This document shows positions 10,634 to 41,969 of a stretch of 64,000 nucleotides of DNA, piece by piece. Position 1 is the stretch's first letter; each line of letters begins with the position of its first letter. This DNA comes from an uncultured Rickettsiales bacterium (GTDB taxonomy: Bacteria > Pseudomonadota > Alphaproteobacteria > RF32 > CAG-239), in assembly GCA_900551865.1 (NCBI GenBank), contig URXV01000008.1:1415-65414 (forward strand), written 5' to 3'. Under the pieces are notes generated by a model, which was not told the origin of the DNA, did no database searches, and worked only from the letters and a program-made list of their open reading frames with translations. The position numbers and the translations under genes are program-made.

Positions 10634-10642
10634 TTTTCGCTG

Positions 10643-13476: not shown

Positions 13477-13559
13477 TGCGCCGTCTCCTCTCTTAAAAAT
13501 TTTGCCACCCTGAAAATTCTGCCGTTTGCCGTCCGGTGTCAATTCGGATTCGCACCCGT

Positions 13560-14717
<1,158 letters not shown>

Positions 14718-14729
14718 TTATCAGCTTTA

Positions 14730-16716: not shown

Positions 16717-16808
16717 ATCTCCGAAACAATGGGAGATAAATCATTTTTTAACATAATAACATTATACTTGTAAACATTCAAAGATTCTTTTTTTACTCAG
16801 GGGGAATT

Positions 16809-17813: not shown

Positions 17814-17878
17814 TAAATGCTTGAAAAAAATAAATTTAGATTATAATATGCCTCGTATCGTTTAGGAGAAAAACAACC

Positions 17879-18544
17879 ATGGTTCTTTTAGTTCACCACA
17901 GCATCTCGCCGCAATCTCGCAAAGTTCGCCTGATTATGGCAGAAAAGAAAATGCTTTTTGTATTAAAAGAAGAAGAACCATGGAAACTTTCACAGGACAT
18001 ATTAGATATAAATCCTTCGGGAGATTTGCCCGTGTTGGTTTTTGACGGTAAGGTTGTTGCCGGAAATTATGCCGTAACCGAATATTTGGAAGAAAGCAAT
18101 CCCCAGTATAAGCTGCTTCCTGAAGAGCCGGTTGCCCGGGCAGAAGTGCGCAGGATTATGGATTGGTTTGACACAAAATTTTTTAACGAAGTCTATAAAT
18201 ATATTGTTGCAGAAAAAATTATAAAACGGTTTCAGTTGAAACAGGCACCAAACTCCAAAATTTTAAAAGCCGGATTGAATAATTTGAAATTTCATATGGA
18301 ATATATAGATTATCTGGCCGACCGAAACAATTACCTTGCCGGGAAAAACCTGACATTGGCCGATTTGACCGTAGCGGCGCACTTGTCAATCATAGACTAT
18401 TTAGGCGATATTCCGTGGAATGATTATAAAAATGCCAAATTATGGTACGCAAAAATAAAATCGCGTCCGAGTTTTAAAGATATTTTGAAAGACAATATCC
18501 GCGGCATATCTCCGTCAGCGAACTATTCAAATCTGGATTTTTGA
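17879..18544 (+). CDS. Glutathione S-transferase family protein
   Basis: Thioredoxin-like N-domain (HHSISPQSRKVRLIMAEK, LPVLVFDGKVVAGNYAVTEYLEE) and helical C-domain (LTLADLTVAAHLS, WYAKIKSRPSF). Confidence 0.8.
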   Translation: MVLLVHHSISPQSRKVRLIMAEKKMLFVLKEEEPWKLSQDILDINPSGDLPVLVFDGKVVAGNYAVTEYLEESNPQYKLLPEEPVARAEVRRIMDWFDTKFFNEVYKYIVAEKIIKRFQLKQAPNSKILKAGLNNLKFHMEYIDYLADRNNYLAGKNLTLADLTVAAHLSIIDYLGDIPWNDYKNAKLWYAKIKSRPSFKDILKDNIRGISPSANYSNLDF

Positions 18545-19087: not shown

Positions 19088-20497
19088 TTAATAGCATGTT
19101 TCTAAATTATATCCTCCGCCGGTGGCTTTATAAAATGCCGTAATATATTGCAAAATTTCGGCATTGCTGGCAGCTAATGCGGTTTGTGCATTCAAAAGGT
19201 TCTGTTCGGCGGTGGCAACGTCGGTAAAATCAACCAGTCCGTTTTCGTATTTTTCACGGGTAAGATTCATAACGTTGCGCATTTTATAATACGAATTTTT
19301 ACGGTAAGCATTTGTTTTATACGCCTGTTCTGTTGCTGTAATGGCATTTTTGATTTCCGAAACGGCTGTAAGCATGGCTTCGTTATAATTTAAGATATAT
19401 TCTTCTTTAATATGTTTTTGCAGTTCTATATTGTTTGTCAACTGTCCCCAGTGCCAGATTGGCAGACTTAATCCCGGAGTATAACCGTAAACCTGGCTGT
19501 CTTTATTGAAAAGGGAATTGCCGCTTGAAGAAATAAAGCCAAAAGTTGCGCTGAGGCTGACAGTTGGGTACAAGTTTGTTATGGCTTCGCTGACAACTGC
19601 ATTTTGCGCCCGGATAGTCGCCTCGGAGGCCATAATGTCAGGACGGGAGCGGATAATGCTGAGCGGCAGGTCATATAGCTTTTTGGTGTTATAATTAAAA
19701 GTCGTTGCCGTGATGTTTTTCTTATATTTGTCAAGATTTATCGGCAGATTGCTGGGAAGAACACCCAATAAAACGGCAATAGCGTTTTTATAGCTTTCAA
19801 TTTGCTGTTTTAATGGCGGAATACTGGATTTTGTCGTTTCTACGGCATATTCAGCCTGATTTAGAGCCAGTTCGTCGGCAATTCCTGCTGTATATTTATC
19901 TCGGACAGTTTGCAGAATATCTTGTTGTAATGCCAGATTCTTTTGTGCAATAAACAGTTTTTCCTGAGCTTCCCGCAGTCCGATGTAATTGCCGGTAACC
20001 TCTGCGGTAATGGAAACTTTTAAATCTAGCAGAGTATACTGGTAATTATGCATAAGCTCATAATATTGTTCGGTAATATATTTCCCTTTTCCCCAGATAT
20101 CCAGTTCCCAGGAAGCGTCCAATCCGACTTTAAAGGCATTTATGTCATACGAATAATCCTGATTGTCACTGGCCTTGCTGAAATTATATTCACCGTTTGC
20201 ATCAATCATGGGGTAATTGGTTTTGGCATTAATCATCAGGGAGTAGCGGGATTGTTGCAGGCGCTCTATTCCCTGCCGTATCGTGAAGTTATTATTTAAA
20301 GCGTGATTAATCAGTGTATTTAAATCACTGTCTTTAAAAATCTCATACCAGGCAGAACTGACAGAATTTCCGTTTTTTTTCAGATTCAGATTTTTTTGAA
20401 CATCATACGGTGTAACAATTTCCGTATGGTGGTATTCTTCGCCGACATGGCAGGCTCCCAGCAAAACCGATAATAACAAAACGGGATATTTACGCAT
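19088..20497 (-). CDS. RND efflux outer-membrane factor lipoprotein (NodT/OprM family)
   Basis: Lipobox LLGAC, two OEP-type repeats, and C-terminal ATGGGY. Overlaps the RND pump stop by 8 nt. Confidence 0.85.
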
Positions 20498-23400
20498 TTG
20501 TTTTCTCCTCTGTTGTCTGCATATTCTCTTCCGTTGCCGGCAGATTGTTTTCGGGGCTTTTTTCGTCTTTGGTCGGGTAAAAATATTCTTTTATGCTTTC
20601 AAACAACGCAAATAATGCCGGAATAAATATAATGCCGACCAGAGTTGCCGCAATCATGCCGAAAAATACAGTAACACCGATTGATATTTGTGAGCTTGCA
20701 CCGGGGCCAGTGGCAATAACCATCGGAAAAACGCCGAGGATAAACGTCATTGCCGTCATCAGAACCGCGCGGAATCTTTCGCCGGCGCCTCTTTCCGAAG
20801 CCTCCAGAATACTAAGCCCCTGTTCTCGGTAATCTTTGGTAAATTCAACAATTAAAATAGCATTTTTCGCTGCTAGGCCGATAAGAAGAATAATGCCGAG
20901 CTGGGCATAAATACTGAGTGGAAGACCGAACAGGTGTAATCCGAGAAAAGCGCCGAGAACAGCGAAGACAGTGGAAAACATAACTGAAAATGCCAGCATC
21001 CAGCTTTCGTATAGTGCAACCAGGAACAAATAACAGAATATGACGGCCAGAGTAATCAATGCCCCCACCAGTCCGCGCGTTTCAGCCTCCTGCAAAGAAA
21101 GAGCCGTCCAGTCGATGGAAAAGCCTTGCGGCAAAACCTGTTCAGCCAGTTTCTCCATGGTATCCATTGCCTGTCCGCTGCTGATGCCTTCTGCAGCCTG
21201 CGCCGTGATGGCCGCGGCAGTATATAAATCATAGCGGTAGATGATTTTTGGCGAAATTTCCGTAGAAACATCGGCAAAACTGTCAATTTTTATCAAACTG
21301 CCGTTGTTGGATTTAACATAAAGATTTTTGATGTTTTCTATGCTGCGTCGATAATTGAAATCGGCCTGCAGGATAACCTTGTTGACTTGTCCGCTCAACG
21401 TAATGTTGTTAATATATGTTGCCCCTAAATTGCTTTGCAGTGTATTATAAAGGGCTGAAACCGGAATGTCGTAAGATTGCAGTTTCGTCCGGTCTATATT
21501 AAGATAAACATGCGGCGTATCTGCGGTAAATGTACTGAAAGCATAAGCCATCTCCGGGCTGCTGTTAGCCGCGTAGAGATATTGTTTTAACGCTTTATCC
21601 AAATCTTGAGGTGTAGCATCGGTATTGGTTGCCACCAATTCTAAGGACAAACCGTTACTTTGTCCGATTCCGGGGACGGACGGCGGGGCAAAAAAGTTAA
21701 GCTCGGCATTTTTATAAGAGCCGAATTTTTGGCTTAAAGAACCGGTGATGCCTTCAATAGAAAGAGCCCTGGTCGTGCGCTTGGACCAGTCTTCCAACCC
21801 TATGACGCCGAGGGCGACATTTTCCCCGCTGCCTCCCAGCAGGCTGTATCCGGCGACGGTAATAACATATTTAATTCCGTCCATCTGCAAAATTTTACGG
21901 CTCATATCAGCCAGAATCTCATTCGTCTGGTTAATGCTGGCGGTTGTGTCCAGCTGCACGTTTGCAAAAATAATGCCCTGATCTTCTTCCGGCAGAAAAG
22001 AAGTTGCCGTAAATTTAAAGTATAATCCGATAACGGCGATAACGGCCGTAATAATAAGAACCGTAAACAGCAGATAACGGGAAAAAAAGCCGACGACTTT
22101 AATATAAACGTTTTTGAATTTATCCAATCCGTCATTAAACAGTTTAAAAAAGCCGCGCCCCCGGCTTTCCTTTTCATTTTTAAGAAAAATGGAACATAAA
22201 GCCGGACTGAGTGTCAAGGCATTGAATGCGGAAAAAACGACCGATGTACCAATGGCAACGGCAAATTGCTGATAAATTTTTCCCGTAATGCCCGCCATCA
22301 ATCCGACCGGAACAAAAATGGCAAGCAGAACGAAAGTTGTCGCGACAATGGCGCTTCCTATTTGTTGCATGGCTTTTACTGAAGCCTCATAAGCCGGAAG
22401 GTTTTCGTTAAGCATAAGATATTGTACGCGTTCAACCACGATAATGGCATCATCGACAACCAGTCCGATAACCAAAATCATGGCAAATAGCGTTAAGATG
22501 TTAATATCAAATCCAAGAATATAAATAATAACAAATGTGGCGATTAAAGAAACTGGAATTGTTATCAGCGGGATTAACGTGGTTTTTATTTTCTGCAAAA
22601 AAAGAAACGTAACCAGAATAACCAGCCCGAAAGTGATAAACAGCGTTTCTACAATGGCAGATATGGACGCCCGGACATAATCCGTTGAATCATAAGCAAC
22701 TTTTATCTCCATATCTTTGGGAAAAGTTTGAGCAAGTTCATCAATTTCCTTTTGTACGGCATCCATCGTTTGCAGGGCGTTGGTGTTCGGCGTTTGGTTC
22801 AAGGCTATAATAACCGCCGGAGCGTTGTCATATTTTGAGTTAATGTTGTAGGAATCCCGTCCCAGTTCAATCCGCGCAACGTCTTTCAAATATGTAACTC
22901 CGCCGCTTTCAGAGGTTGCAATGACAATATTGGAGAAGTTTTCAACGCTGTTGAGCAGCCCCTGCGCAGTCAGAGTCAAAACAAGATTGGTATCTTTGCT
23001 GCTGGGCGCCGAACCTATGCTTCCGACCGCAGCCTGAACGTTTTGATTTTGCACGGCAGCAATAACATCGGTACTGCTCAGGCCTAACGCCGTTATTTTA
23101 TCAACGTCAAGCCAGATGCGCATGCTGTATTGCGGGCCGAATATCTGTACCTGTCCGATGCCGTAAAGTCTGGACAGCGGGTTTTTTATATTGGTATAAG
23201 CATAATTGCTTAAAAACAAATCATCATATGAATTATTTGGTGAACGCAGGGCAATCAGGGCCAGTATGTCTGCATTTTCCGTCGAAACGTCAAGCCCTTC
23301 TTTGGTAACTTCGGCAGGAAGTTCGCTGTTAACCTGTTGCAGGCGGTTTTGTACTTTAACCTGCGCAATATCCGGATCTGTTCCTATGTCAAACGTAACC

Positions 23401-23675
23401 GTAAGCGTATAGGAACCGTTATCGTCAGAAGTAGATGACATATACAGCATATCTTCAACGCCGTTCATCTGGTTTTCAATCGGTATGGCGACCGTATCGG
23501 TCAAAACTTGGGCATTTGCGCCGAGGTAGGTTGTTTTAACGGTAACCTGTGGCGGAGTAATGCTTGGGAATTGTGAAATCGGCAGAATTTTAATTGCCAG
23601 GACACCGAGAATAATCATAATGATTGAGATAACCATGGCAAAACGAGGTCTGTCTATAAAAAATTTAGAAAACAT
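20490..23675 (-). CDS. RND multidrug efflux permease (AcrB/HAE1 family)
   Basis: 1061 aa. N-terminus [24 protein letters not shown], 12-TM architecture with two large periplasmic loops, and conserved [12 protein letters not shown] and [13 protein letters not shown]. Confidence 0.95.
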
Positions 23676-23699
23676 GGCCGTAAACTCCCGTGTCGGAAA

Positions 23700-24833
23700 T
23701 TAATTAATAATGTCAAAATGGATGTTCGCACCGTTTTTTATGTTTGAAACATCGTCCAATATCAGCAAGTCGCCGGCATTAAAAGTATTCTTAAGGACAT
23801 ATTGGTTATTTTTATCGGCAATAATATCAACTTTGACTTTTGTAATGGCGTTGTTTCTTGCTATGACGACAAAATTTCCCGTTGTTTCCATTTTTATAAA
23901 GTTCTTGTCGAGAATAACGCTGTCTTTAAAAATTTTTTCGACTTCCACCGTTACAAAAGAGTTTGGCAGAAGTTCATTTTTGTCGTTTTTAAAATAAGTG
24001 TAAACAGCCAGAGAGTTGGTAGTTTTATTGATTTCATTGTCAGTGTATTTAAATTCTCCGGGATAGGGAAAAATTTGGCCGTTTGCCGTCTTCAGCCGGA
24101 TAATACTGTCATTGAACAAGTTTTTTTCACTCTGTGCCATATTAAGGTATTCTGCGTCAGTCAGGGAAAAAACAACCCGTATAGGATCTGTTTGAACGAT
24201 GTTTAACAAAGTCCCGTTTCCCGGAGAAACATAGTCTCCGGGGCTTAGCGTAAAGTTTCCGACAAGTCCGGAGATGGGAGCTTTAATTTTTGTGTATCCG
24301 TAATTAACCTCCGCCAAAGCGCGATTGGCTTCTGCATTTTTTAATGTCGCCTGCGACTGCAGAAAATTATTTCTGGCATTGTCTATTTCAATTTCGGAAA
24401 AAGCTTTCTTGCCAGACTTTTGAACCCTGTCGTAGTAATTTTGATTGTAAGCAAAAGCTGCTTCCGCCTGTAAGACTGAAGCTTCTGCGGCGTCAAGTTT
24501 CGCTTTGTACTCATTGGGTTCAATGGTAATAAGAAGTTCTCCTTCTCTGACAAACTGTCCTGCTTTCACGGGGATTTCTTGCAGATAACCGCTGATGTAA
24601 GGGATAATCTGCACCTGATTGATAGCCTCGGCATAGCCGACATAGCTGTTTGTTACCGTAACGTCGCCCGGCATAATCGGCTTGGCGTTTAAAGTAATGC
24701 TGTCGTTAACGGGAACCGGCCTGGCTTCTTTGGCATCAGACATTTTAAACATATAAAATCCTAATCCGAAAGAAGCCAGACATAATATTAATAACAATAA
24801 TATATAAACAAAACGTTCGTTTTTATTCTCCAT
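23700..24833 (-). CDS. RND efflux periplasmic adaptor (membrane fusion protein)
   Basis: N-terminal anchor, lipoyl/alpha-hairpin pattern (GYLQEIPVKAGQFVREGELLITIEP ... YTKIKAPISGLVG). First gene of the MFP-RND-OMF operon. Confidence 0.85.
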   Translation of the reverse strand: MENKNERFVYILLLLILCLASFGLGFYMFKMSDAKEARPVPVNDSITLNAKPIMPGDVTVTNSYVGYAEAINQVQIIPYISGYLQEIPVKAGQFVREGELLITIEPNEYKAKLDAAEASVLQAEAAFAYNQNYYDRVQKSGKKAFSEIEIDNARNNFLQSQATLKNAEANRALAEVNYGYTKIKAPISGLVGNFTLSPGDYVSPGNGTLLNIVQTDPIRVVFSLTDAEYLNMAQSEKNLFNDSIIRLKTANGQIFPYPGEFKYTDNEINKTTNSLAVYTYFKNDKNELLPNSFVTVEVEKIFKDSVILDKNFIKMETTGNFVVIARNNAITKVKVDIIADKNNQYVLKNTFNAGDLLILDDVSNIKNGANIHFDIIN

Positions 24834-25930: not shown

Positions 25931-26935
25931 TTAAAAAGCTCTCAGATTTTCTATAAGATTTTGCATATCTTCGGGAAAATCGGCTGTAAACGACAGGCAC
26001 TGGTGGTTTATCGGATGTTCAAACCCGAGAGAATAGGCGTGAAGAGCCTGCCTCGGAAAAGTATTGACAAAGGATTTTAATGGTTCAGGCAAATTAATGG
26101 TGCTTTTTTTTGCTTTCGTATATACATCGTCACCAACCAAATTACAACCGATCGAAGACATATGGACGCGTATTTGGTGTGTCCGCCCTGTTTCCAGATT
26201 GCATTGCACTAGGGCTGCCGCCTTTTTATAAGTTTCAATGGTTTTGTAATGGGTTGTTGCTGTTTTGCCGCCATTTTGCACAATGGCCATTTTTTTACGG
26301 TCATAAGGGCTTCGGGCGATATTGCCCGTAATTGTTCCCTGTTCGGGTACAGGAACGCCGTAAACGACAGCATAATAAGTCCGCTCAATGGTATGGTAAA
26401 AAAATTGTTCGGCCAAACCGCGATGGGCAATGTCGTTTTTTGCCGCAACCAGAATACCGCTCGTGTTTCTGTCAATACGATGGACAATTCCGGGTCTTGC
26501 TACGCCGCCGATTCCGGATAGAGAATCCCGGCAATGATACAAAAGGGCATTAACCAATGTGCCCGTATAAATGCCTGCAGCCGGATGAACCGTCATTCCT
26601 GCCGGTTTGTTCACGACAATCAGGTCACTGTCTTCATAGAGAATGTTGAGCGGTATGTTTTCTGCCTGCGGTGCCGCTTCTCTGGGTTCCGGAAGGTTTA
26701 TCTGATAGACGTCTCCAATCCGGGTTTTGTGGTTTTTATCCAAGATAACGTCGTCATCTGCAAAAACGAATCCCTCTTCAATCAGCCTCTGCACCTGAGC
26801 GCGCGAAAAATCCCGGATTTCACCGGCTATATATTTGTCAATACGGAGAGAAGCTTGTGAAGCATCAACCGGATTTGTATAAAAAACTTTATTATTTTCG
26901 CTGTCCATAGGGGTTCTTGTTAAATATATTTTCAC
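25931..26935 (-). CDS. rluD: 23S rRNA pseudouridine synthase, RluA/RluD family
   Basis: S4-like N-domain (RIDKYIAGEI...SRAQVQRLI) and catalytic motif GIVHRIDRNTSGILVAAK, followed by GRTHQIRVHM. The start codon is ambiguous (M1 versus M10). Confidence 0.9.
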   Translation of the reverse strand: MKIYLTRTPMDSENNKVFYTNPVDASQASLRIDKYIAGEIRDFSRAQVQRLIEEGFVFADDDVILDKNHKTRIGDVYQINLPEPREAAPQAENIPLNILYEDSDLIVVNKPAGMTVHPAAGIYTGTLVNALLYHCRDSLSGIGGVARPGIVHRIDRNTSGILVAAKNDIAHRGLAEQFFYHTIERTYYAVVYGVPVPEQGTITGNIARSPYDRKKMAIVQNGGKTATTHYKTIETYKKAAALVQCNLETGRTHQIRVHMSSIGCNLVGDDVYTKAKKSTINLPEPLKSFVNTFPRQALHAYSLGFEHPINHQCLSFTADFPEDMQNLIENLRAF

Positions 26936-26986
26936 ATATACTGCCTAAAATAAACCATAAGGTAAGATAAAATCAAGGGTATAATA

Positions 26987-27289
26987 ATGTCAAACGTTAA
27001 AATAGCCAAATATATTGCCATATTGCTGGGTGCCGGCATCGTTTTGTGCACTTATTTTGTGTTTTTGAAAATCCTGAATAAGAAAACGGGTATTTCCGGT
27101 GCTCCGGTTTCTGCCGAAATGGTGCTGAAAGTTCCTGAAAATGCTGAAGTAAAAGATATCAGGATAACTGAGAGGAAAATTTATTTCTTAATGACATCGC
27201 CTCAGGAAGAGAATTTAATAATCGTTGACGAAAATACCCGGCAGGAGATTTTGAAAATTGTTCTGAAAAAGGAGAAAACCCATGAGTAA
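26987..27289 (+). CDS. Hypothetical N-terminally anchored small protein (first gene of the T4CP-containing operon)
   Basis: 100 aa with a single TM (YIAILLGAGIVLCTYFVFLKIL). Its stop overlaps the next ATG (ATGAGTAA, 8-nt overlap). Confidence 0.5.
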   Translation: MSNVKIAKYIAILLGAGIVLCTYFVFLKILNKKTGISGAPVSAEMVLKVPENAEVKDIRITERKIYFLMTSPQEENLIIVDENTRQEILKIVLKKEKTHE

Positions 27290-28376
27290 TGATGATTCTC
27301 TTGATGCTTTTTTAACTGCGGATATGCCGGCTGATGAAAAGAAAAAAAACAAAGACACAAGTTTGGAAGATGAATTTGCCAAGCTTTTGAATGATTTTAT
27401 AAATCAGGATAAACCGGCAACAAAATCTGGTAATAAAAAAACGGAAGAAAGTCTGGACAGCTTTCTGGAAAGTTCGGGCAGCGGCCTTGACAGTTTCTTG
27501 ACTTCGTCGGTTGTTTCGTCCGAAAATACACCGGCTGCACAGCCGCAGCAGGTTTCTTCCAAAGCGGAATTAGTGGAAAATGCCGCACAGCCGACAGAGG
27601 AGGAGGATTTGTCCGGCCTCATAACTCAGCCTGTTGCCGCTCCCGAAATCACGCCGGAAAATATTCAGGCCGACGATACTGCCGCAAACAGGCTGAAACA
27701 GGAAGAGCAGGAATTGGCGCGTGCCGTTGCCAATTTTCAGGATGGCATAGTTGCAATGGCTGACAAAAAAAATCTCAAAGTTCCCGATACCGATTACAAG
27801 GAAGATATGCTGTATCCGAACTATAAGCCCAGTATTGGCAAAAAAATTGCCCAATATCTGCTGGCATGCTGGGATATTATGAATAAATATGATCCTGAAA
27901 ATATGAAACGGCTTTCCAAAGATGCCGGAGATGAAGAATATCTCGCTTTTGCCGAAACACTGAACGATACGGATATGCAGCTCGCCATAATATCATACGT
28001 TGAAATTCTTATAAATCTGGAAATTTGCGAAGTCGGCTATGAGCAAAAAAAGGAAATTTTGCAAAAAAACCGGATAAAGCGGGAATTGTATGAAGAATAT
28101 ATGGAACTTCAGGAACGAAAAGCCTTGTTTATCAAAAAATTAAAAGAAAAAGATTTTCCGGTAGATGCGGAACGTCTGATAGGAAATTACTTTCGGGTTG
28201 CACAAAAAGATCCCGACGGCTCATTTAATGCCCTGGTAAAGAATCCGGCCATGTTTTCTCCGATAGAATTTGAAAAAATTCGGCCCAAGTTCTTTGGGTT
28301 GATAAAAGTAACGCCGGAAGACGGGATAAAAGCAAATCAAAAAATCGGGCATTTTATAAAAAAACTTAAAGTTTAA
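27282..28376 (+). CDS. Hypothetical protein: acidic, disordered N-terminal half plus helical C-terminal domain
   Basis: 364 aa. The first ~150 aa are rich in D/E/S/T/P/Q (SLDAFLTADMPADEKKK..., SLDSFLESSGSGLDSFLTSS). The C-terminal ~200 aa look helical. No family motif recognised. Confidence 0.55.
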   Translation: MSNDDSLDAFLTADMPADEKKKNKDTSLEDEFAKLLNDFINQDKPATKSGNKKTEESLDSFLESSGSGLDSFLTSSVVSSENTPAAQPQQVSSKAELVENAAQPTEEEDLSGLITQPVAAPEITPENIQADDTAANRLKQEEQELARAVANFQDGIVAMADKKNLKVPDTDYKEDMLYPNYKPSIGKKIAQYLLACWDIMNKYDPENMKRLSKDAGDEEYLAFAETLNDTDMQLAIISYVEILINLEICEVGYEQKKEILQKNRIKRELYEEYMELQERKALFIKKLKEKDFPVDAERLIGNYFRVAQKDPDGSFNALVKNPAMFSPIEFEKIRPKFFGLIKVTPEDGIKANQKIGHFIKKLKV

Positions 28377-28467
28377 TAAAATTTGCCTGATGGCGGAACG
28401 GTTTAAAGTAGACAACCTGCGGATTTTATGCTAATATGACATAAAAGCATAAAAATCGGAGGCAAAA

Positions 28468-30099
28468 ATGGCTGAACAATCCCAAATAAACGAATTGGAC
28501 CGGTTGCTAAAGCAAAATATTGAAGAGATAGATAAGGCAACAAATGCTAATTTAGTTGGTGTTCCTCCCCGAGCCGGGGCGGAATCCGGAAACGGCAGTA
28601 CGCCGTCTGGAGCACGGTCGGAAAGCGGGGCGTCGTCTTCCTCTGCGGATAACACGGAAACAAGCGGAAACAATGCGGGGGAAAACGATGGAAACAGGCA
28701 GGATACTCCGACATCGGCAGAATCGGAAAACAGGCAGGATACGCCGGAACCTCGCCGTCCTGAGAGGATTCCCGATGGCGTTTCGCGCGCGTATGACGAT
28801 GTGTCTTTAGGCGAATTTGATACCAAAGCCCCGAAAGAAAAAACGGAAACCAAGGGTTCAAAACCTAAGGGCGGCATAACGCCTCCCAAACGCGACCGTG
28901 GTGGAACCAAGGGAAAATCCGGCGGCGATGATATTATGGAAGTTTTTTGGAATGACTGTATTATGGCTTTTTATGCCTGGACAATAGATACGGTTGTCGA
29001 CAATACGTTGGATTTTGCCGAATGGGTACTGTTTTCGCCATATAAATCCGGCGGCGGCACGGTTGAAACTACGACTGAAAAAAAGCCGAAAACCATATAT
29101 ATGTTGGGCGAAGAATTGTATAAAAGCCGTATGGAAAACTTTGCCAAAGAAAAAGATAAGCTGATAGAGTTAAACGAAAATCTGGAAAAAAGCGCAAACG
29201 GAATCCAACCCGAATGGAGACTTTGGGGGAAAATGCCGGCATTTTATCCCAAATTGCAGCAAATTCATGCCAAGGCAATAGAAAATCCCAATTCGGAAGA
29301 AGCCAAATTTATGCATAAGTACGGTTTGGGAAGCAGTGCCGAAACCGTTAAAGGGCGTTTTGCCAAAGAGGAAAAACTGTTTATGCTCGCTGTTCGTTTG
29401 GCTACGGTAGAAGAAGTCGTCAGCGATACAAAAAATACGATTTCTCCTGAATTTTCCCAAAAATTGGCAGAATTGGATGAAACGTTGAAAAAGAATAATT
29501 GCAGCAAGCAGGAGGTAACGGGGAAAATCAATGCCCTGTCAGAAGAAATCGGGGGAGACAGCACTGTTTGCAAAGACGTTTCTGCAAAAATACAAGAAAT
29601 AAATGCTCTTCTTGAAAAAGACGGAGATATTTCGAAAGTAAAAAAAGATATCATAAAAAAAGCCAAGGAACTTCGCAAGGTTTCCGAGGGTGCCGGCCAC
29701 GACGAAGACATCATAAAAGAACATATCAGAAAACGCGGCCAGGAAAAATATAAGAGGCTTATGGAAAATATTGATAAAATTCATGAAGCTTATGCGGATG
29801 ACCCGGAAAAGGTCAAGGAAACCATTAAAGAATACCTTGTTTCGGTAAATAATGCCGGCAAGGAGGCCAAGCAAGCGACGGATAAAGTTATAGAAGAAGG
29901 CCTGAAAGGCAAAATAAATGCCGGAGAAAAACGTAAAAAAGCCAAAGCATCTGTAGAAAAAATTGATACGGCGATAAATGATTTTATGCTTGAAGGCGAA
30001 AAAATTTCATCAAAAGCTCCGGCAGCTCAAAAAGATGAATTCGTATTAACCGAAAAACAATTTTCTAAAGCTATAAAAGATTATCGGTTAGGTCGCTAA
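28468..30099 (+). CDS. Hypothetical protein: disordered N-terminus, hydrophobic segment, long K/E-rich coiled-coil C-terminus
   Basis: 543 aa, strong SD (ggaggcaaaaATG). Low-complexity residues ~30-160 contain the repeat xNRQDTP twice. Hydrophobic patch FWNDCIMAFYAWTIDTVV. The remainder is helical and K/E-rich. Confidence 0.6.
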   Translation: MAEQSQINELDRLLKQNIEEIDKATNANLVGVPPRAGAESGNGSTPSGARSESGASSSSADNTETSGNNAGENDGNRQDTPTSAESENRQDTPEPRRPERIPDGVSRAYDDVSLGEFDTKAPKEKTETKGSKPKGGITPPKRDRGGTKGKSGGDDIMEVFWNDCIMAFYAWTIDTVVDNTLDFAEWVLFSPYKSGGGTVETTTEKKPKTIYMLGEELYKSRMENFAKEKDKLIELNENLEKSANGIQPEWRLWGKMPAFYPKLQQIHAKAIENPNSEEAKFMHKYGLGSSAETVKGRFAKEEKLFMLAVRLATVEEVVSDTKNTISPEFSQKLAELDETLKKNNCSKQEVTGKINALSEEIGGDSTVCKDVSAKIQEINALLEKDGDISKVKKDIIKKAKELRKVSEGAGHDEDIIKEHIRKRGQEKYKRLMENIDKIHEAYADDPEKVKETIKEYLVSVNNAGKEAKQATDKVIEEGLKGKINAGEKRKKAKASVEKIDTAINDFMLEGEKISSKAPAAQKDEFVLTEKQFSKAIKDYRLGR

Positions 30100-30110
30100 G
30101 GAGAAGATGA

Positions 30111-30602
30111 ATGGCAAAAGTGGAAAAATTGATAAAATTTTTTACGGTTTGTGCAGTTGTTTTTGTCGTTTTGGGGTATATTTGCCGGGAATTGTTTAAA
30201 TTTATCTGGAATTTTGATGTTTTCAATCGGGAATCTTACCGGATTTTGTATGATTACTGGGAAAACGGCGGCGTATTTAATACGTTTCGGGATTGCAGCT
30301 TGGGGCTGTTTTTGTTTTTAATGCCCGTAATATGGCTGGTTTTAAGTTATAAGCTGTATAAGTACGGGCTGGTGAAGTTTTTGCTTAATCCGTTGGTTAA
30401 ACTGTACCGCCGTATAACCCGTCCTAAAACTATGGAAGTAGAACACGTTTCAATCAAAAATCTTGGCGGGAAAGATAAAACGCTGGATGAGATTATCGCC
30501 GAAAAAGTGGAAAAGCAGGGAGGGAACAAAAACGTTGGCCATGCCTCGCAAAATCTGCGCCGGCAGATAGCTGCAAAAATTGAAGAAAATGAAAAACAAT
30601 AA
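30111..30602 (+). CDS. Hypothetical 2-TM membrane protein (paralogous to the N-terminus of 30657-31979)
   Basis: 163 aa, SD aaggag. TM1 FFTVCAVVFVVLGYICRELF and TM2 LGLFLFLMPVIWLVLSY. Shares a W.FD.F..E..R.L...W..G block with the next gene. Confidence 0.6.
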   Translation: MAKVEKLIKFFTVCAVVFVVLGYICRELFKFIWNFDVFNRESYRILYDYWENGGVFNTFRDCSLGLFLFLMPVIWLVLSYKLYKYGLVKFLLNPLVKLYRRITRPKTMEVEHVSIKNLGGKDKTLDEIIAEKVEKQGGNKNVGHASQNLRRQIAAKIEENEKQ

Positions 30603-30656
30603 TTACTTGTTAACCAATCAATGGATATAATGGGAAAATAAAAGCCGGAGAAGAAC

Positions 30657-31979
30657 TTGAAACCGCTGATAATAATACTAAAAACGCTGATAGTCGGCTA
30701 TTTATGGAGTATCGTCTTCATAGATGGCATCAGGGTGGTTTTGCTTATAAACTGGCATTTTGACATCTTTTTATCCGAACACTGGCGCCTTTTAAGTTAT
30801 AAATGGAACAGCGGAGCGCCTATGACAAATTCAGAACTGGGCTTTTTTATGATTATAGCCAGCTCAATTCCGCTGTGGCTTGCCGGCTGGGTAGGGTTGT
30901 GCCTTGTAAAGTGGGAGCGCCTGCTGAAAAAAGTATTCTTAAGCCCGCTGTATCTTTTCCGTAAAATAACCCTGAAAACCAAACCGCCGGTTGTCGTTAA
31001 GAAAAAATCCATTGCCGAAGAAACGAAAGTCGTTAAAAAGACGCCGATAATCAAAAAAGCCCCGGTCAAACGTCCGCCGTTGCCGTCGGCGACTTTAATG
31101 CAGTCAAATATAAACAGTAATTTGATGGCGTCGCCTGCCGGACGTACTTCTTCCTATACGCCAGGCAAAAAAGAGCCGGAAGCGCCGATTAACCATGCTC
31201 TGTTTAATTTTGACGATGATGATTTTGACTTGGATTTTGATTTTGAAAAGAAAGACAAGAAGCCGGATATCGACGATTCCATCCCGTCTGCGCTTATGGT
31301 TGACGAGCCGAAAACGATTGAAACCGTTCCTGCGGCAGTTATTGAAGAAAAGCCTAAAAACACCCCTGCGCCTTCAAAAAATCAGGAAAAACCTGCGCCG
31401 CAGAATAAAAAAGACAATGCCCAGCCCAGGAACAAATCCGCAGATATGCCTGCCGCTCAGGCAATGCCGATTAAGGAATCCCATACTCCGGTTTTGGATG
31501 TTCTTAATCAAAAGGGGTTTGACGTTATTCCGTCTGCCATTATCAAAAATACAACAATCGATTATATCGGCGTTTCCAAAAATCAGCTCTTTTTATGCCT
31601 GATTGATAAAGAAGCCGGAGACTGGCTGGCGGATGAAGAAAAGTTCAATGATGAAGAGCCGTTATGGTTTTCGGAAAGCAGCCACCGCATTTCTCCGGTA
31701 CGAAAGATTGATGTGGCCAGAGATATTTTAAAAACCAAACTGGCTGTCGGAGATATGAATTTTGAAATCATCGCGTATGTTATCATACAGGCCGGCAATA
31801 TTATTAACGCCGAGGATATGTTTGAAATCTGGAACAACATGAACGTAAATGTAACGCGTATAAACCGGGGGAGCCCGAAAGAAATCCGCCTGTTTTCCAA
31901 ATCATTAGATAATTGTGAGGAAAAAACAGATAAAAACACGCTTGAAAAACTTAAGAAACTTATTCGCAGTCTGGCATAA
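30657..31979 (+). CDS. Hypothetical membrane protein: 2-TM module, K/P-rich and acidic linker, C-terminal alpha/beta domain (possibly NERD/PD-(D/E)xK-like)
   Basis: 440 aa. TTG start with GGAG 6 nt upstream. The N-terminal 2-TM module is paralogous to the previous gene. The linker contains KKKSIAEETKVVKKTPIIKKAPVKRPP and FDDDDFDLDFDFEKKD. It lies immediately upstream of the coupling protein. Confidence 0.6.
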   Translation: MKPLIIILKTLIVGYLWSIVFIDGIRVVLLINWHFDIFLSEHWRLLSYKWNSGAPMTNSELGFFMIIASSIPLWLAGWVGLCLVKWERLLKKVFLSPLYLFRKITLKTKPPVVVKKKSIAEETKVVKKTPIIKKAPVKRPPLPSATLMQSNINSNLMASPAGRTSSYTPGKKEPEAPINHALFNFDDDDFDLDFDFEKKDKKPDIDDSIPSALMVDEPKTIETVPAAVIEEKPKNTPAPSKNQEKPAPQNKKDNAQPRNKSADMPAAQAMPIKESHTPVLDVLNQKGFDVIPSAIIKNTTIDYIGVSKNQLFLCLIDKEAGDWLADEEKFNDEEPLWFSESSHRISPVRKIDVARDILKTKLAVGDMNFEIIAYVIIQAGNIINAEDMFEIWNNMNVNVTRINRGSPKEIRLFSKSLDNCEEKTDKNTLEKLKKLIRSLA

Positions 31980-32003
31980 TTGTTATTATTGAGGTAAGAA
32001 AAA

Positions 32004-34223
32004 ATGGCAAAAGAAAGAGGAAAAGAATGGGAAGAATATGACAACGCCGTCCGGTGGATGACAATAACGTTCGCCATCGCGGTCGTTGTAACGGTTGTTT
32101 TCATGTATATCGCCCCGATTCTGGCATTTTTTATGCAAAACGGTATTTCCAAAAAGAGTGTGGAAATAGCTGGTTTGTTTTTGAAAAAGTCTTTTGCGGA
32201 CTTTGGTTTTTTGTGGGACTGGTATCTGAAATGGTTCAAAAAGGTTTATCGCTACAGCGGCGAGTTTAAAATAAGTTTATGGCCGCCGATTCTGCCGTTT
32301 ATTTCTTTTCCGTTGATTTTAATTGTCGGCGGCATAAAGTGTCCGTATAAATTCCAATCGAATATTCACGGGTCGGCGCACATTGCTACTTTGCGCGATA
32401 TTGAAAAAATGCCGCTGCTCGGATTTGACGGTTTTTGTATGGTGGTCGGTAAGTTTCAGGGTAAAATGCTGAAACTGAAAGAAACGCTGTCAACCCTGTG
32501 TTGTGCGCCTCCGGGAACCGGTAAAACTGCCGGTGTCGTTATTCCGACAATTTTTAATTCCGAGGGGCTTAGCATTATCGTAAACGACCCGAAACCAGAG
32601 TTGTGCTACCAGACGACGGGTGCGAGAAACAAGGTTGGCCCTGTATTTGTCATCAACTGGGGTAAGGAAGACAATCCGGCAACTGGAGAATACTATCCGA
32701 GTTGGAATCCGCTGTCTCCGGGAGCGCTCCCTGCACCGGGGCCGGAACGCGACCTGTATGTCGATTCTATGTGCAACACGCTGGTGGAAGACCCCAAGGG
32801 CGGCGCTGATCCGCACTGGTCAAAAACCGGTCGAAGCGCGCTCTGCGGCTTTATTCACTTCATTTCTTCCAAATGCGAAAGGGCTTTGGCCAATGAACGC
32901 TTTATTCAGAAGATTTATGAAGGCTCAATGACAGCCGAAGACAAAGCCGAGTTGATAAAGCTTTACGATGAAATGAGCATCGGCGGTTTGCGGGCTAATG
33001 CCGCGCGTGCAATTCAGGATTTGCAGAACGGAAATCTGACGATTGAAAATTATCTGCCTGTCGGAACCTGGAACCTGCTGCCGGAAAAATGGATTAACCA
33101 CGAGCCCTGTCTGGCAATGATTCTGGAATGGATTACTTCGTCCCAGATTGAACAGAGCAATGAAATTAAACGCCGTCTGGAAGAAGGCGACCAAATGGCC
33201 GCTATGGCAGACCCGATGCGCGATTTGCTTGACGCCGCGGTGGAAGAGGCCAACAATTATGGATATTCCCGCCGTTGCGTAACTGAATTGAGCGCCTTGA
33301 GCGCGATGCCGGATAAAGAGCGGGGATCCGTCCTTTCCACCGGTCTCACCGGTATCGGTATTTTCAAAAACTCGGCAGTTGTGGCTCGTACCAGCTTTTC
33401 CGATATTCAGTTTAAAGATTTGCGCGGTATGAAAGACCCGGTAACCGGCGAATGGAAACCGATTTCCGTTTACCTCTCGGTTAACCAAACGGACGCTCAG
33501 GCGTTGAACCCGATTAGCGCAACGTTTGTTGACCTGATGAGCGCTTATCTGATTTCAAATCCGCCAAATTCTGTTAACCGTACCGATGGTAAAATGGGGC
33601 CTTTCCCGACTTTGTTTGTGCTTGACGAGTTTCCGCAGATGCCGAAGCTGAAAGCGGTTATTGACGGGCCGGCGGTCGGCCGCGGGCAAAAAGTGTCATA
33701 TCTGTTGATTGGGCAAGATTTGGGTCAGATTTCCGGCAAATACGGCAAGGACGATTTGGAAACGGTTATATCTACGACTGCTTGCAAAGTTATTCTGTCA
33801 CAGAACAACGAACAGACAGCACAGCGTTTTTCCAAAATGATTGGCAATAAAACGGTGCAGACTACGTCCTACAGCCGAAACGAAGGCAGCCTTGCCAAAG
33901 AATATAATCCGTTTGCCAAAAACGTCAGCTATCAGCTGCAGGGTGTTTCAGCCATCAGTGCCAATGACCTGTTAAGCTTGCCGATGCTGAAGCAGGTCGT
34001 GCTGATGCAAGGCTCGATTGATACGCCGATTATGGCAGACGCGCCGCGTTTTTATCTGGACAAGAAAATGCTGGCAATGTCAAAGCTCCCGCATTCCCCA
34101 TGGGTGCCGGACTGGATTGTTGCCCAGCGTACTGATGAAAATGAGGATATCCTATCTAAATTAGGTATAGATTATGACCCGAATGCAGAAGAAGAGGAAG
34201 GTTTTGAAGAAGACGAAGCTTAA
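32004..34223 (+). CDS. Type IV secretion/conjugation coupling protein (VirD4/TraG family ATPase)
   Basis: 739 aa with two N-terminal TMs. HGSAHIATLRDI resembles the T4CP HGSARWA block. Walker A CCAPPGTGKTAGVVIPT, then VNDPKPEL, Walker B TLFVLDEFPQMPKL, and the C-terminal conserved block GRGQKVSYLLIGQDLGQISGKYGKDDLETVISTTACKVILSQNNEQTAQRFSKMIGNKTV. Acidic tail NAEEEEGFEEDEA. Confidence 0.85.
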   Translation: MAKERGKEWEEYDNAVRWMTITFAIAVVVTVVFMYIAPILAFFMQNGISKKSVEIAGLFLKKSFADFGFLWDWYLKWFKKVYRYSGEFKISLWPPILPFISFPLILIVGGIKCPYKFQSNIHGSAHIATLRDIEKMPLLGFDGFCMVVGKFQGKMLKLKETLSTLCCAPPGTGKTAGVVIPTIFNSEGLSIIVNDPKPELCYQTTGARNKVGPVFVINWGKEDNPATGEYYPSWNPLSPGALPAPGPERDLYVDSMCNTLVEDPKGGADPHWSKTGRSALCGFIHFISSKCERALANERFIQKIYEGSMTAEDKAELIKLYDEMSIGGLRANAARAIQDLQNGNLTIENYLPVGTWNLLPEKWINHEPCLAMILEWITSSQIEQSNEIKRRLEEGDQMAAMADPMRDLLDAAVEEANNYGYSRRCVTELSALSAMPDKERGSVLSTGLTGIGIFKNSAVVARTSFSDIQFKDLRGMKDPVTGEWKPISVYLSVNQTDAQALNPISATFVDLMSAYLISNPPNSVNRTDGKMGPFPTLFVLDEFPQMPKLKAVIDGPAVGRGQKVSYLLIGQDLGQISGKYGKDDLETVISTTACKVILSQNNEQTAQRFSKMIGNKTVQTTSYSRNEGSLAKEYNPFAKNVSYQLQGVSAISANDLLSLPMLKQVVLMQGSIDTPIMADAPRFYLDKKMLAMSKLPHSPWVPDWIVAQRTDENEDILSKLGIDYDPNAEEEEGFEEDEA

Positions 34224-34239
34224 ATCTGCCGCTGCGGAA

Positions 34240-34962
34240 ATGAGAAGTTTTTCTCTGTGGTGCGTTTTGAAGAGCAGTATAAAATTTATATTGCTCTTCA
34301 AGCGTACATTTTTATTGTGGTGTTTGGCAAATTTTGCTTTTCTGGTTGTCTTTAGGCAGATTCCAAATGGCTGGACCAATTCGCTGAGCATCCTGTGGCT
34401 TGTTGCCTACTATGTGTTTTGGTGCGTGTTTGTCCGTCATATTCAGCAGCATCCGCCTTATTTTTCCCTGATTCGCATTTTTAACGGTTTGATTCCCGCC
34501 AGCAAAATTATGTTTATTAACATTATAATCTATTTGGTTTTGGTAATTGCTCCATACATTCCGTTATTTATGGGTTTTAGGGAGAAATATCTGGAATTTT
34601 TTGAGCAATATATGGCTGTTCTGCAAAGCCACAATTCCCTGCCGGGGAAAACGCTGTTTTATGTGTTAATGCTGCTGTTGTCTCCGTATACGATAAGCCG
34701 GCCGTATCTTGCCTGGTTGTCATCGCTGATAGGAAAAAGCCGCTCAATCATAGATGCTTACAAAAAGACGCAAGGCAACTACTGGAATTTTGTCTTTTGC
34801 GCGGTTGTTATGAGCGGGCTGTTTGCTCTGTCATATTTTATTGACGTTACTTATAAAACAAGCTCTCTGATTTTTGTAATGTCAGTCCTGCCGATATTTT
34901 TCAATGTCGTCTTTATTGATATTTACAAAGTATTTTACAAGCGTAGAAAAAATATCAAATAA
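34240..34962 (+). CDS. Hypothetical polytopic membrane protein (last gene of the operon)
   Basis: About 6 predicted TMs (for example LSILWLVAYYVFWCVFV, IMFINIIIYLVLVIAPYIPLF, FVFCAVVMSGLFALSYFI). The track ORF starts at 34174, overlapping the T4CP by 50 nt. ATG 34240 is 16 nt after the T4CP stop. The start is unresolved. Confidence 0.55.
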   Translation: MRSFSLWCVLKSSIKFILLFKRTFLLWCLANFAFLVVFRQIPNGWTNSLSILWLVAYYVFWCVFVRHIQQHPPYFSLIRIFNGLIPASKIMFINIIIYLVLVIAPYIPLFMGFREKYLEFFEQYMAVLQSHNSLPGKTLFYVLMLLLSPYTISRPYLAWLSSLIGKSRSIIDAYKKTQGNYWNFVFCAVVMSGLFALSYFIDVTYKTSSLIFVMSVLPIFFNVVFIDIYKVFYKRRKNIK

Positions 34963-35032
34963 CTCTTTTTATCCGAAACTGCTCGCTTTTAGCCAGGCAG
35001 TGAATTTCGCCGTTAAATTTTATCCGGTTTAG

Positions 35033-37123
<2,091 letters not shown>

Positions 37124-37304: not shown

Positions 37305-38204
37305 ATGAGCGGGATTATGTCCCGCTTTTTTTATGAAGTGAGAAAAATGGCAACAGAAATTAAAGTTTATCGGATAAACGAAACGGAAATTTGGCAGGGA
37401 AAACTGCATAAAGTGAACGGAGAAAACGTTGAAAAAGCCGTGCGCTTTATCCTGCGGCCTCTGAATCCTGCAGATGCCGAAGCAATGGGAAAGCTTTCGG
37501 AAAGCATTTATCGGCATCTGCGTAAAGGTGAGGAATGTTTTATTCACAAACATTCGGGAGAGTACTTTTATAACGTATTTGATAACCCTCATCTTCGTTA
37601 CACGGGAATTTTTGTCGGAGATACGCTGATAGGTATGTCATATTTGAAAATATGTGAAAATTTTCAGGAATTGCAGGAAGAATTGCCGAATGCCGAATAT
37701 GATTTTTTTCAGGCGGAACGTAATGGAGGAAAAAACCGGATAGCTTCTTTCGGGGCAGATTCTGTTTTGCCTGAATATCGCGGCAATGCCTTAAATTCCG
37801 TTATGGTGAACTATCGTCTCAAATTGGCTGAACAAATGGGATGTACAGACTGTACCTCTATTGTCGACAGGAAAAACAAATGGAATATGGCACCATATTT
37901 TTCTGGGCGGTTTAATCTTTTTGCGACGGCAGTAGATCCATCCGATGGAGGGAAAATATCTTTGTTGCACCGCCCCCTCGGGAAAGAAACGGTTCTTTCC
38001 TGTTTTAAGCCGAGAATTATGCTCCCTTTTGACCGCTTTGAACTGATTGACGGGTTAATCGGCCGGGGGTTCATCGGCATAGATTTTAATCGGGAAACAG
38101 GCGGGGTTTTGTTTGCCCATTCCTCATATTATACAAACAAGGGGCGCACGATAGACGGTATTCAGCTGTTACAGCAAAGAAAAATGGCCGGAATGTCTTT
38201 ATAG
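37305..38204 (+). CDS. Hypothetical protein with GNAT-like acetyltransferase core (tentative)
   Basis: FGADSVLPEYRGNALNSVMVNYRLKLAEQMG resembles GNAT motif A (R/Q-x-x-G-x-G/A). The start is uncertain, with an alternative ATG at 37347. Confidence 0.45.
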   Translation: MSGIMSRFFYEVRKMATEIKVYRINETEIWQGKLHKVNGENVEKAVRFILRPLNPADAEAMGKLSESIYRHLRKGEECFIHKHSGEYFYNVFDNPHLRYTGIFVGDTLIGMSYLKICENFQELQEELPNAEYDFFQAERNGGKNRIASFGADSVLPEYRGNALNSVMVNYRLKLAEQMGCTDCTSIVDRKNKWNMAPYFSGRFNLFATAVDPSDGGKISLLHRPLGKETVLSCFKPRIMLPFDRFELIDGLIGRGFIGIDFNRETGGVLFAHSSYYTNKGRTIDGIQLLQQRKMAGMSL

Positions 38205-41881: not shown

Positions 41882-41969
41882 TGGCGGAGTGTACAGGACT
41901 CGAACCTGTGCATCCTTATTCGGGATGACGGATTAGCAATCCGCTGCATTACCTCTCTGCCAACACTCC
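41882..41969 (-). tRNA. tRNA-Ser (anticodon GCU)
   Basis: Manual fold of the reverse complement GGAGTGTTGGCAGAGAGGTAATGCAGCGGATTGCTAATCCGTCATCCCGAATAAGGATGCACAGGTTCGAGTCCTGTACACTCCGCCA. It has a 7-bp acceptor stem (GGAGTGT/ACACTCC), anticodon loop TTGCTAA, a long variable arm, a T arm ACAGG-TTCGAGT-CCTGT, and an encoded CCA. Confidence 0.9.

Follow-up and report, generated by a model that had tools for sequence, protein, structure and literature searches.

A conserved chromosomal operon around a locally orphan VirD4/TraG-type coupling protein in uncultured gut Alphaproteobacteria

In this study we describe an operon of seven co-directional genes, designated g1 to g7, in a 64-kb stretch of DNA from an uncultured alphaproteobacterium (64,000 nt of contig URXV01000008.1, referred to as the window). 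The sixth gene, g6, is predicted to encode a type IV coupling protein (T4CP) of the VirD4/TraG type. Genes g1 to g6 occupy the same position in the same order in 80 species, and the T4CP diverged in step with rpoH; hence the operon is vertically inherited core genome and no mobile element. In sister lineages the module lies beside tandem VirB6/TrbL-like genes. This physical linkage leads us to favor, with somewhat better than even confidence, a lineage-specific coupling complex of a chromosomal, vertically inherited and scattered system resembling a type IV secretion system (T4SS), other parts of which, at least VirB6-like ones, would be encoded elsewhere in the genome.

The operon lies on the plus strand between two genes on the minus strand, rluD (25931-26935) on its 5' side, from which g1 is divergent, and ligA (35033-37105) on its 3' side. 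It comprises g1 (26987-27289, 100 aa), g2 (27282-28376, 364 aa), g3 (28468-30099, 543 aa), g4 (30111-30602, 163 aa), g5 (30657-31979, 440 aa), g6 (32004-34223, 739 aa), and g7, which ends at 34962 and has an ambiguous start at 34174, 34204 or 34240 (~240-262 aa). From g1 to g7 the genes are separated by an 8-nt overlap, by gaps of 91, 11, 54 and 24 nt, and finally by either a 16-nt gap or a 50-nt overlap. The list of open reading frames (ORFs) agreed exactly with the original prediction in these coordinates and spacings, and both flanking genes were confirmed.

Judged by its sequence, g6 is a bona fide VirD4/TraG-type T4CP, as had been proposed. Three Pfam models of T4CPs were matched, namely T4SS-DNA_transf (E 7.4e-54; 183.8 bits, gathering score 20.1), TraG-D_C (2e-22; 79.8 bits, 22), and TrwB_AAD_bind (5e-18; 65.5 bits, 20.5). 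Like the VirD4/TraG/TrwB proteins of type IVA systems, g6 has two N-terminal transmembrane (TM) segments, a nucleotide-binding domain with Walker motifs, an all-alpha domain and an acidic C-terminal tail. The hydrophobic segments at residues 25-43 and 90-108 indicate a TM anchor. The Walker A motif APPGTGKT (residues 168-175) and the Walker B motif D541-E542-F543 are intact, and both are invariant in an alignment of sequences from RF32 (see below), from sister lineages and of plasmid VirD4 proteins. In contrast to the plasmid VirD4s, the all-alpha (substrate-recognition) domain contains a conserved, lineage-specific insertion of ~55 aa (residues ~298-352). Further differences are the chromosomal location, the absence of adjoining virB or relaxase genes, a conservation resembling that of rpoH, and an identity of only 35-39% to the nearest plasmid relatives, which are encoded in canonical virB2-B11/virD4 loci of Sphingomonadales megaplasmids (T4SS loci of Erythrobacter aureus and a Sphingosinicella megaplasmid). 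NCBIfam scores were far under every equivalog cut-off and place g6 outside all named subfamilies. The closest solved structure was Cag-beta of H. pylori (8dol, E 6.5e-7), for which a profile search was needed; a phmmer search of g6 against the PDB yielded nothing at 1e-3.

Screening one genome per species yielded 413 T4CP relatives, of which the best 80 (69-95% identity) were examined. All of these derive from uncultured Alphaproteobacteria of human, chicken, ruminant (including rumen) and rabbit guts, a group which we take to be the GTDB order RF32. Every full-length locus of the 80 species showed the order rpoH, rluD, g1, g2, g3, g4, g5, T4CP, with orthologue lengths of ~95-113 aa for g1, ~280-430 aa for g2, ~430-740 aa for g3, ~160-166 aa for g4, ~404-510 aa for g5, and ~731-760 aa for the T4CP. 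This order persisted even in loci where g1 and g3 were too diverged for detection by tblastn. Since it recurs in all full-length loci, the arrangement is not due to chance. Conservation as a unit was therefore confirmed for g1 to g6. The seven-gene unit of the original prediction had to be reduced to a core reaching from g1 or g2 to g6, because g7 is clade-specific and is exchanged elsewhere for a pair of genes encoding an HNH-motif protein and a SUKH-like protein.

In 66 loci the median identity to the window was 72.5% for the T4CP, 77.8% for rpoH, 61.5% for rluD, 45% for g2, 43.5% for g5, and 29% for g4. Divergence of the T4CP was correlated with that of rpoH (Spearman 0.76) and of rluD (0.72). 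The exact T4CP protein is present in 884 blocks of a public assembly collection, and no relatives were found in IMG/VR. It had been allowed that the block might turn out to be part of a known conjugative element; what was found instead is the core-genome inheritance described above.

The connection to a T4SS is based on more distant homologues of g2. Searching 1.84 billion representative proteins with a g2 profile resulted in only 128 clusters, so that g2 homologues are extremely rare, the distant ones of which share only the last 90-130 residues. In six out of eight independent distant contexts with flanking DNA, the g2 homologue was divergent from 1-5 tandem TrbL/VirB6-like genes (L092, L093, L095, L096, L097/L098, and L101-L103). 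One array member scored 39 bits with the Pfam model PF04610 (TrbL; gathering score 25.9), and PF04610 was precomputed for several others. In L092, L097/L098 and L101-L103, which are gut metagenome sequences with a G+C content of 46-57%, one arm of this arrangement has three polytopic TrbL/VirB6-like genes in tandem, accompanied by genes for a double-HTH_3 regulator and for a repeat protein of 1170-1370 aa. The other arm consists of g2, a g3-like gene, a full-length paralogue of g5 (g5'), the g5 orthologue, and the T4CP gene. The whole g2-g3-g5'-g5-T4CP module was present in L092, L097, L098 and L103, where g5 was recognized by its hidden Markov model (HMM) with E 2e-84 to 2e-90 and the T4CPs are ~58-64% identical to those of the window and of related RF32 loci. 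L093, L095 and L096 (G+C 33-38%) carry 1-5 tandem TrbL-like genes divergent from the g2 homologue with no T4CP nearby, and in L099 and L100 (G+C 36%) rluD is followed by (g1-)g2-g3(-g5'-g5) without a T4CP. These distant contexts indicate that the g2-g5 module predates its present position and that it was repeatedly linked to the T4SS-specific VirB6/TrbL family. When an alignment of four TrbL-like sequences was used for a metagenome scan, only three loci were obtained, all of the L092 lineage.

L103, a metagenome contig of 3x coverage, requires caution. Its positions 1-3556 match window positions 33180-36734 with 92% identity, a region comprising ligA, g7 and the 3'-terminal third of the T4CP gene, whereas the remainder is 75-80% identical to the L092 lineage. 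Probably the assembly fused two sequences within the conserved T4CP gene and L103 is a chimera, a real recombinant being less likely. The junction was therefore discarded as a link between the TrbL arrays and the g7-ligA region. The repeat protein that follows the TrbL-like array and the double-HTH_3 regulator is a giant Gln/Ala-rich tandem-repeat protein ('AEQARVIAETQQ...') of the size given above, with neither a signal peptide nor a Pfam match (L092 1-2995; L097 1-2599; L103 16999-20514). Contigs L092 and L097 tend to break within its gene. In L103 the giant repeat gene is followed by genes for a 331-aa protein and a 411-aa lipoprotein, neither of which could be assigned to a family; the idea that the lipoprotein is a secretin was not supported by Pfam or PDB searches.

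Among the partners of the T4CP, the g5 protein begins with a 2-TM hairpin (residues 1-105) and, behind a disordered linker of ~170 aa, ends in a NERD / PD-(D/E)XK-fold domain (residues 277-440; nt 31485-31979). An invariant motif, HALFNFDDDDFD, is located in the linker, and the C-terminal domain contains an invariant acidic block of 28 residues, GDWLADEEKFNDEEPLWFSESSHRISPV. Single-chain AlphaFold2 (AF2) models were computed for two proteins, g5 and g2, from shallow alignments of database matches. The g5 domain was modeled as alpha-beta-beta-beta-alpha-beta (H278-285, E289-296, E299-306, E310-317, H347-364, E370-377) with values of the confidence score pLDDT of 87-92. The best Foldseek match was NucS/EndoMS (5e-3, probability 1.0), and N.BspD6I, the R2 RLE domain, Card1, Bax1 and Ecl18kI were also matched; the best-ranked matches are mostly PD-(D/E)XK nucleases, with E-values of only 5e-3 to 0.5. 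Of 47 g5 orthologues, 26 matched Pfam NERD (PF08378) at E <= 1, all of them sub-threshold (best 8e-4). The window copy did not match this model, and one database relative, P0090, carries a precomputed PF08378 annotation.

Residues D302 and D317 of g5 are nearly invariant and E319 is invariant, whereas the canonical Lys position of the (D/E)xK motif is occupied by an invariant Glu, which makes nuclease activity uncertain. The resulting D...D-K-E pattern presumably resembles the BamHI-type variant. g5 shares with the NERD / PD-(D/E)XK superfamily, which includes the MOBC relaxases, the core fold, conserved acidic residues and weak but recurrent NERD matches. It differs in the replaced Lys, in the sub-threshold level of these matches, in the 2-TM anchor attached via the long disordered linker, and in the unique acidic loop of 28 residues. 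According to the positive-inside rule, the linker and the nuclease-fold domain would be on the cytoplasmic side.

The original prediction of two proteins with a paralogous 2-TM module applies to g4 and g5. g4 is a 2-TM hairpin with a short cytoplasmic tail, and its alignment with the g5 N-terminus by hhalign had a probability of 98.8% (E 1.3e-16). The shared module has a conserved inter-helix loop, W-x-F-D ... W ... W-x-x-G. At the position of g4, sister lineages contain a full-length g5 paralogue of 343-408 aa, the nuclease domain of which is degenerate in L092. Because the distant g2 contexts hold this full-length paralogue there, the g4 of RF32 is a truncated g5 paralogue that has lost the nuclease-fold domain. 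Searches of PDB sequences with g2, g4 and g5 profiles returned low-complexity noise only.

Searches of Pfam, NCBIfam, PADLOC and PHROGs with all seven window proteins resulted in the T4CP matches of g6 only; PADLOC hits were sub-significant (mad8 1.7e-3 for g6, ZorA 0.014 and DruC 0.47 for g3). The earlier statement that none of the six neighbors belongs to a recognizable family nevertheless has to be corrected for g5, with its NERD-like domain, and for g1. The latter has a single hydrophobic segment (residues 4-30), suggesting a single-pass membrane protein. Among its positional orthologues 25 out of 29 matched Pfam DUF6476 (best 1.4e-9), and the match is precomputed in L089. The window copy did not reach E 0.1 and is too diverged to match, so that its membership in DUF6476 rests on orthology. 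g1 also adjoins rluD in the distant locus L100.

Both g2 and g3 appear to be soluble. g2 has an acidic, disordered N-terminus with LDSFLT-type repeats and a conserved helix, EDEFAKLLNDFI, followed by an all-helical domain (residues 140-364; AF2 pLDDT >90 over ~140-330). The model matched no PDB fold (best E 0.8), so that no function can be read from the structure, and no sequence match was found in Pfam or the PDB. The modeled helical domain would represent an undescribed family. g3 is fast-evolving and varies from ~290 to 740 aa across lineages, but a positional orthologue is present in every locus. Its N-terminus is disordered and rich in Gly/Ser/Pro, its C-terminus is long, helical and rich in Lys/Glu, and a single amphipathic motif, DDIMEVFWNDCIMAFYAW, is conserved. 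Neither a TM segment nor a family match in Pfam or NCBIfam was found for g3. No homologues of g1 to g5 were found in the canonical virB/virD4 loci of the Sphingomonadales megaplasmids. g7 is a polytopic membrane protein with 5 hydrophobic segments. Gene callers place its start at 34204 (252 aa), whereas the alignment of orthologues favors 34240. It follows the T4CP in L001-L025 and ~7 further loci, with other gene content elsewhere, and the succession of T4CP, g7 and ligA is confined to the nearest clade and a few others. The possibility that g7 is a reduced VirB6/TrbL protein was ruled out (hhalign probability 0.1%).

In 13 RF32 loci (L026, L032, L034, L036-L040, L050, L059, L061, L063 and L067, at ~12.2-13.3 kb each) an HNH-motif gene is located directly 3' of the T4CP gene in place of g7 and is followed by a SUKH-like gene. 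The T4CP genes of L092 (pair at 16541-18177) and L097 (16895-18412) are followed by the same pair. In a 14th RF32 locus, L055, the HNH/SUKH-like pair is found ~3 kb downstream of the T4CP (15.0-16.2 kb). The gap between the T4CP and HNH genes is ~10-25 nt, and larger in L067. The HNH-motif proteins are 185-396 aa long; their N-terminus, MWEWS, is invariant, and so is the spacing of the H-N-H motif at their C-terminal end. Their sole PDB profile match, the pyocin AP41 DNase, was aligned on this motif with E 0.07. The overlapping SUKH-like gene, seen in both L092 and L097, showed sub-threshold SUKH/SMI1-KNR4 matches down to 1.9e-4, and L098 ends within the gene at the HNH position. By sequence, the two genes may encode a toxin and its immunity protein, or else a nuclease and a protein that regulates it. 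A polymorphic toxin with varied tips was considered and rejected, as all 109 clusters of the HNH family share one architecture. The pair is restricted to the lineages of these relatives. Since the family is monomorphic and absent from the window, it is only a lead and no evidence for the genome under study.

The claim that the T4CP is locally an orphan was borne out. No VirB2-B11 homologues were detected by tblastn in the window, and no VirB, relaxase or mobility gene was present within 10 kb on either side of the T4CP in 84 related loci. A VirB4-family ATPase was not found in any locus examined, i.e. in the window and the 10-kb flanks of the relatives. The ~50 genes of the window annotated by Pfam include no integrase, transposase or relaxase, as had been observed before, and oriT, relaxase accessory and partition genes are likewise absent. 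The operon also shows no anomaly in base composition within the window. With regard to tRNA genes the earlier description needs qualification: none flanks the operon, but the window does contain a single tRNA gene, tRNA-Ser(GCT) (41882-41969, minus strand), 6.9 kb 3' of g7, beside which neither an integrase nor a repeat was found among the annotated genes.

Gene content, conservation, domain folds and the TrbL-like linkage in relatives allow us to propose a physical complex, for which the direction of transport, the cargo and the remaining T4SS components can be suggested conditionally. By analogy to its family and in view of its intact ATPase motifs, g6 would be the motor, anchored in the membrane, and the receptor for substrates. 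g5 and its truncated paralogue g4 could insert beside g6 via their shared 2-TM hairpins, so that g5 would present its NERD / PD-(D/E)XK-fold domain and the acidic-aromatic linker on the cytoplasmic face. g2, with its helical domain and acidic tail, and g3, as a variable coiled coil, may act as soluble adaptors or tethers that recruit cargo, much as DotM, DotN, IcmSW, DotY and DotZ do around DotL in Legionella, to which they are however not homologous. The cargo would then be passed to a channel containing VirB6/TrbL-like proteins, the genes of which adjoin the module in sister lineages and presumably lie at another site in this genome. One candidate cargo is a protein toxin, given the HNH/SUKH-like genes directly behind the T4CP gene of sister clades; another is a nucleoprotein or DNA that the NERD domain would process.

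The Dot/Icm coupling complex of Legionella consists of DotL together with DotM, DotN, IcmS, IcmW, LvgA, DotY and DotZ. In concept the operon is similar, since the T4CP gene is accompanied by several genes for dedicated accessory proteins, both membrane-bound and soluble, which presumably surround the T4CP. In both cases the gene just upstream of that for the T4CP encodes a protein with 2-3 TM segments and a cytoplasmic domain, and recognition could be mediated by acidic motifs. In contrast, g6 is of the VirD4 and not the DotL type, the cytoplasmic domain of g5 has a nuclease fold instead of the helical DotM domain, and profiles of g2, g4 and g5 retrieved no Dot/Icm subunit from all PDB chains at E <= 10. 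The X-T4SS of Xanthomonadales, in which VirD4 recognizes XVIPCD toxins that are accompanied by immunity proteins, is comparable insofar as genes for a candidate nuclease toxin and a candidate immunity protein follow the T4CP in sister clades. It differs in that no XVIPCD domain is present here, the HNH family is monomorphic, the pair is missing from the window, and virB genes are not adjacent.

A precedent is the rvh T4SS of Rickettsia, which is vertically inherited, chromosomal and distributed over scattered islets, with five tandem enlarged VirB6 paralogues; its virD4 gene follows virB8-B11, and its VirB6 array follows virB3-virB4 (PMC2653234). This precedent supports the interpretation as a scattered T4SS. 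Both systems share the chromosomal location, vertical inheritance and tandem VirB6/TrbL paralogues, the latter beside the g2 module in L092, L095, L096 and L097. However, neither the virB8-B11-virD4 nor the virB3-virB4-VirB6 order was seen in our loci. A literature search on RF32 in connection with T4SSs, orphan VirD4, DUF6476, and NERD domains with coupling proteins found nothing relevant.

Three alternatives had been offered in the original prediction: the substrate-recruitment module of a T4SS with channel genes elsewhere, a coupling complex that is specific to the lineage and has membrane adaptors of its own, and a T4CP repurposed for an undescribed translocation system. Based on the VirB6/TrbL linkage in sister lineages we favor a blend of the first two. 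Several observations weigh against it. VirB2-B5 and VirB8-B11 were unseen in the window and in ~100 loci (10 kb on either side), the sister loci with TrbL arrays included, so that a complete T4SS has to be assumed. HMM and tblastn searches of the window and of 10 kb on either side of the RF32 T4CPs found no TrbL-like gene. The partner set did prove as unusual as had been claimed, and g2 to g5 are without detectable homology to any known T4CP adaptor, DotM included. Moreover, three distant lineages (L093, L099, L100) have the g2/g3(/g5) module but no T4CP gene next to it, and the function of the partners is perhaps not strictly tied to the T4CP. The third alternative, which we retain as the main rival though rather unlikely, is a reduced translocator derived from but independent of a T4SS, in which VirD4 and the g4/g5 hairpins, perhaps with VirB6-like proteins, would form a self-sufficient inner-membrane machine without VirB4, VirB11 and an outer-membrane core complex and would move protein or DNA between the cytoplasm and the periplasm or membrane. 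It would account for the missing VirB2-B5 and VirB8-B11 genes even in the compact divergent loci of L092 and L097, where TrbL-like genes, T4CP and partners lie amid housekeeping genes, and is in keeping with the lineage-specific insertion in the all-alpha domain. It also fits the position of the TrbL-like array as the first element of its operon, with no virB3/virB4 ahead of it, unlike in islet A of Rickettsia. On the other hand, we know of no T4CP that functions without a VirB4-type ATPase in diderm bacteria. Our view was confined to 10 kb on either side of each gene, the left edges of the sister loci are assembly breaks inside the giant repeat gene, and scattered T4SS islets are the rule in Rickettsiales (PMC2653234). 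A related and likewise unlikely proposal is that the operon and the VirB6-like arrays together are a hitherto unrecognized minimal T4SS descendant made up of a VirD4 motor, a VirB6-like channel and membrane-anchored NERD-fold proteins, lacking VirB4, VirB11 and the VirB7-10 core complex and serving a core cellular function of this widespread gut lineage, e.g. toxin or DNA delivery.

T4CPs belong to the FtsK/HerA superfamily and are DNA-dependent ATPases, and relaxases of the PD-(D/E)XK type (MOBC) exist. The operon could accordingly be envisaged as a DNA-handling machine for export, uptake or clearance of chromosomal DNA, with the T4CP as membrane-anchored DNA pump and g5, joined by the HNH protein in sister clades, as a MOBC-like cutting or processing partner. 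Two nuclease-type domains are indeed tied to the T4CP, NERD in g5 of all lineages and HNH behind the T4CP in many, and the acidic residues of g5 are conserved. We nevertheless regard this as quite improbable in view of the invariant Glu in place of the catalytic-motif Lys, the lack of oriT, relaxase accessory and partition genes, and the degenerate or lost nuclease domain of the second g5 paralogue; the pairing of the HNH gene with a SUKH-like gene is typical of toxin-immunity pairs. That ATPases are commonly paired with PD-(D/E)XK nucleases in defense systems, and that HerA-nuclease assemblies appear among the weak fold matches of g5 (rank 45), could point to anti-phage defense or abortive infection by an FtsK/HerA-type ATPase and a membrane nuclease. 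The sub-significant PADLOC matches, the syntenic core-genome position throughout the lineage instead of a variable defense island, and the linkage to TrbL/VirB6-like genes in relatives make this very improbable. A decaying integrated conjugative element that left an orphan T4CP would agree with the occurrence of the nearest characterized relatives in conjugative virB/virD4 loci of alphaproteobacterial megaplasmids. Yet the locus and gene order are identical in at least 80 species, the ATPase motifs are invariant and the T4CP is as conserved as rpoH, and neither integrase, relaxase, repeats, a flanking tRNA nor a compositional anomaly accompanies it; the conservation data effectively refute this explanation, which we regard as scarcely credible.

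Some features of the operon concern its expression. Provided that it forms a single transcript, the 51-nt spacer between the divergent rluD and g1 genes (26936-26986) is the sole possible promoter site. In a scan for consensus matches, which are all that the promoter and hairpin calls represent, promoter-like sequences straddling the spacer were found on the minus (rluD) strand at 26993-26964 (10/12) and 27009-26981. No match was found upstream of g1 on the plus strand, the nearest (26987-27016) beginning at the g1 start codon. The same scan revealed a hairpin with a 17-bp stem and a T-rich tail at 34266-34302 on the plus strand, 43 nt past the stop codon of the T4CP gene and inside the 5' end of g7. 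It may possibly act as a partial terminator or attenuator that limits read-through into g7.

The annotated genes of the window have only housekeeping functions. They include genes for MotA/ExbB, UDG, PGM, LpxC, BamD, RecN, TGT, an RND efflux pump and RpoH as well as IF3, FBA, glycogen phosphorylase, SucCD, Suf, LpxD, FabZ, BamA and RseP. The region 9000-15000, with lpxC-bamD-recN-tgt and their neighbors, has a G+C content of 0.48-0.50 compared to a window mean of ~0.42-0.43; as its genes are housekeeping genes, this rise probably reflects gene-specific composition and not foreign DNA. Between ligA and infC lies an ORF of 299 aa (37305-38204) without Pfam match, whose counterparts in the nearest 25 loci have the same position and 56-70% identity. 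Upstream of rpoH-rluD, a protein of ~665-713 aa with faint similarity to protein kinases is conserved in several lineages together with a protein of ~160 aa (L099 6384-8875; L100 4969-7524; L089 1-937); the RND efflux operon (20490-24833) takes this position in the window. Genes resembling those of type IV pilins, with PilS/Bundlin matches and a prepilin-type N-terminus, are located a few kb from the T4CP operon in L089 (14082-14645) and L064 (15059-15700), and none was seen in the window.

Coupling proteins determine what a T4SS exports, and to our knowledge Legionella is the only case in which coupling complexes of several subunits have been worked out in detail. The operon would provide a second, unrelated set of dedicated T4CP partners, arranged around a VirD4-type ATPase that is kept like a housekeeping gene. 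It adds three seemingly undescribed families (g2, g3, and the hairpin module of g4 and g5) and a membrane-tethered nuclease-fold domain, and offers a testable context for families without Pfam models. The host bacteria are uncultured yet very common in human and animal guts. If a nuclease toxin or DNA is delivered, the system would matter for competition between gut bacteria and for gene flow among them, and if no further T4SS is needed, the minimum that a T4CP requires to function would have to be redefined.

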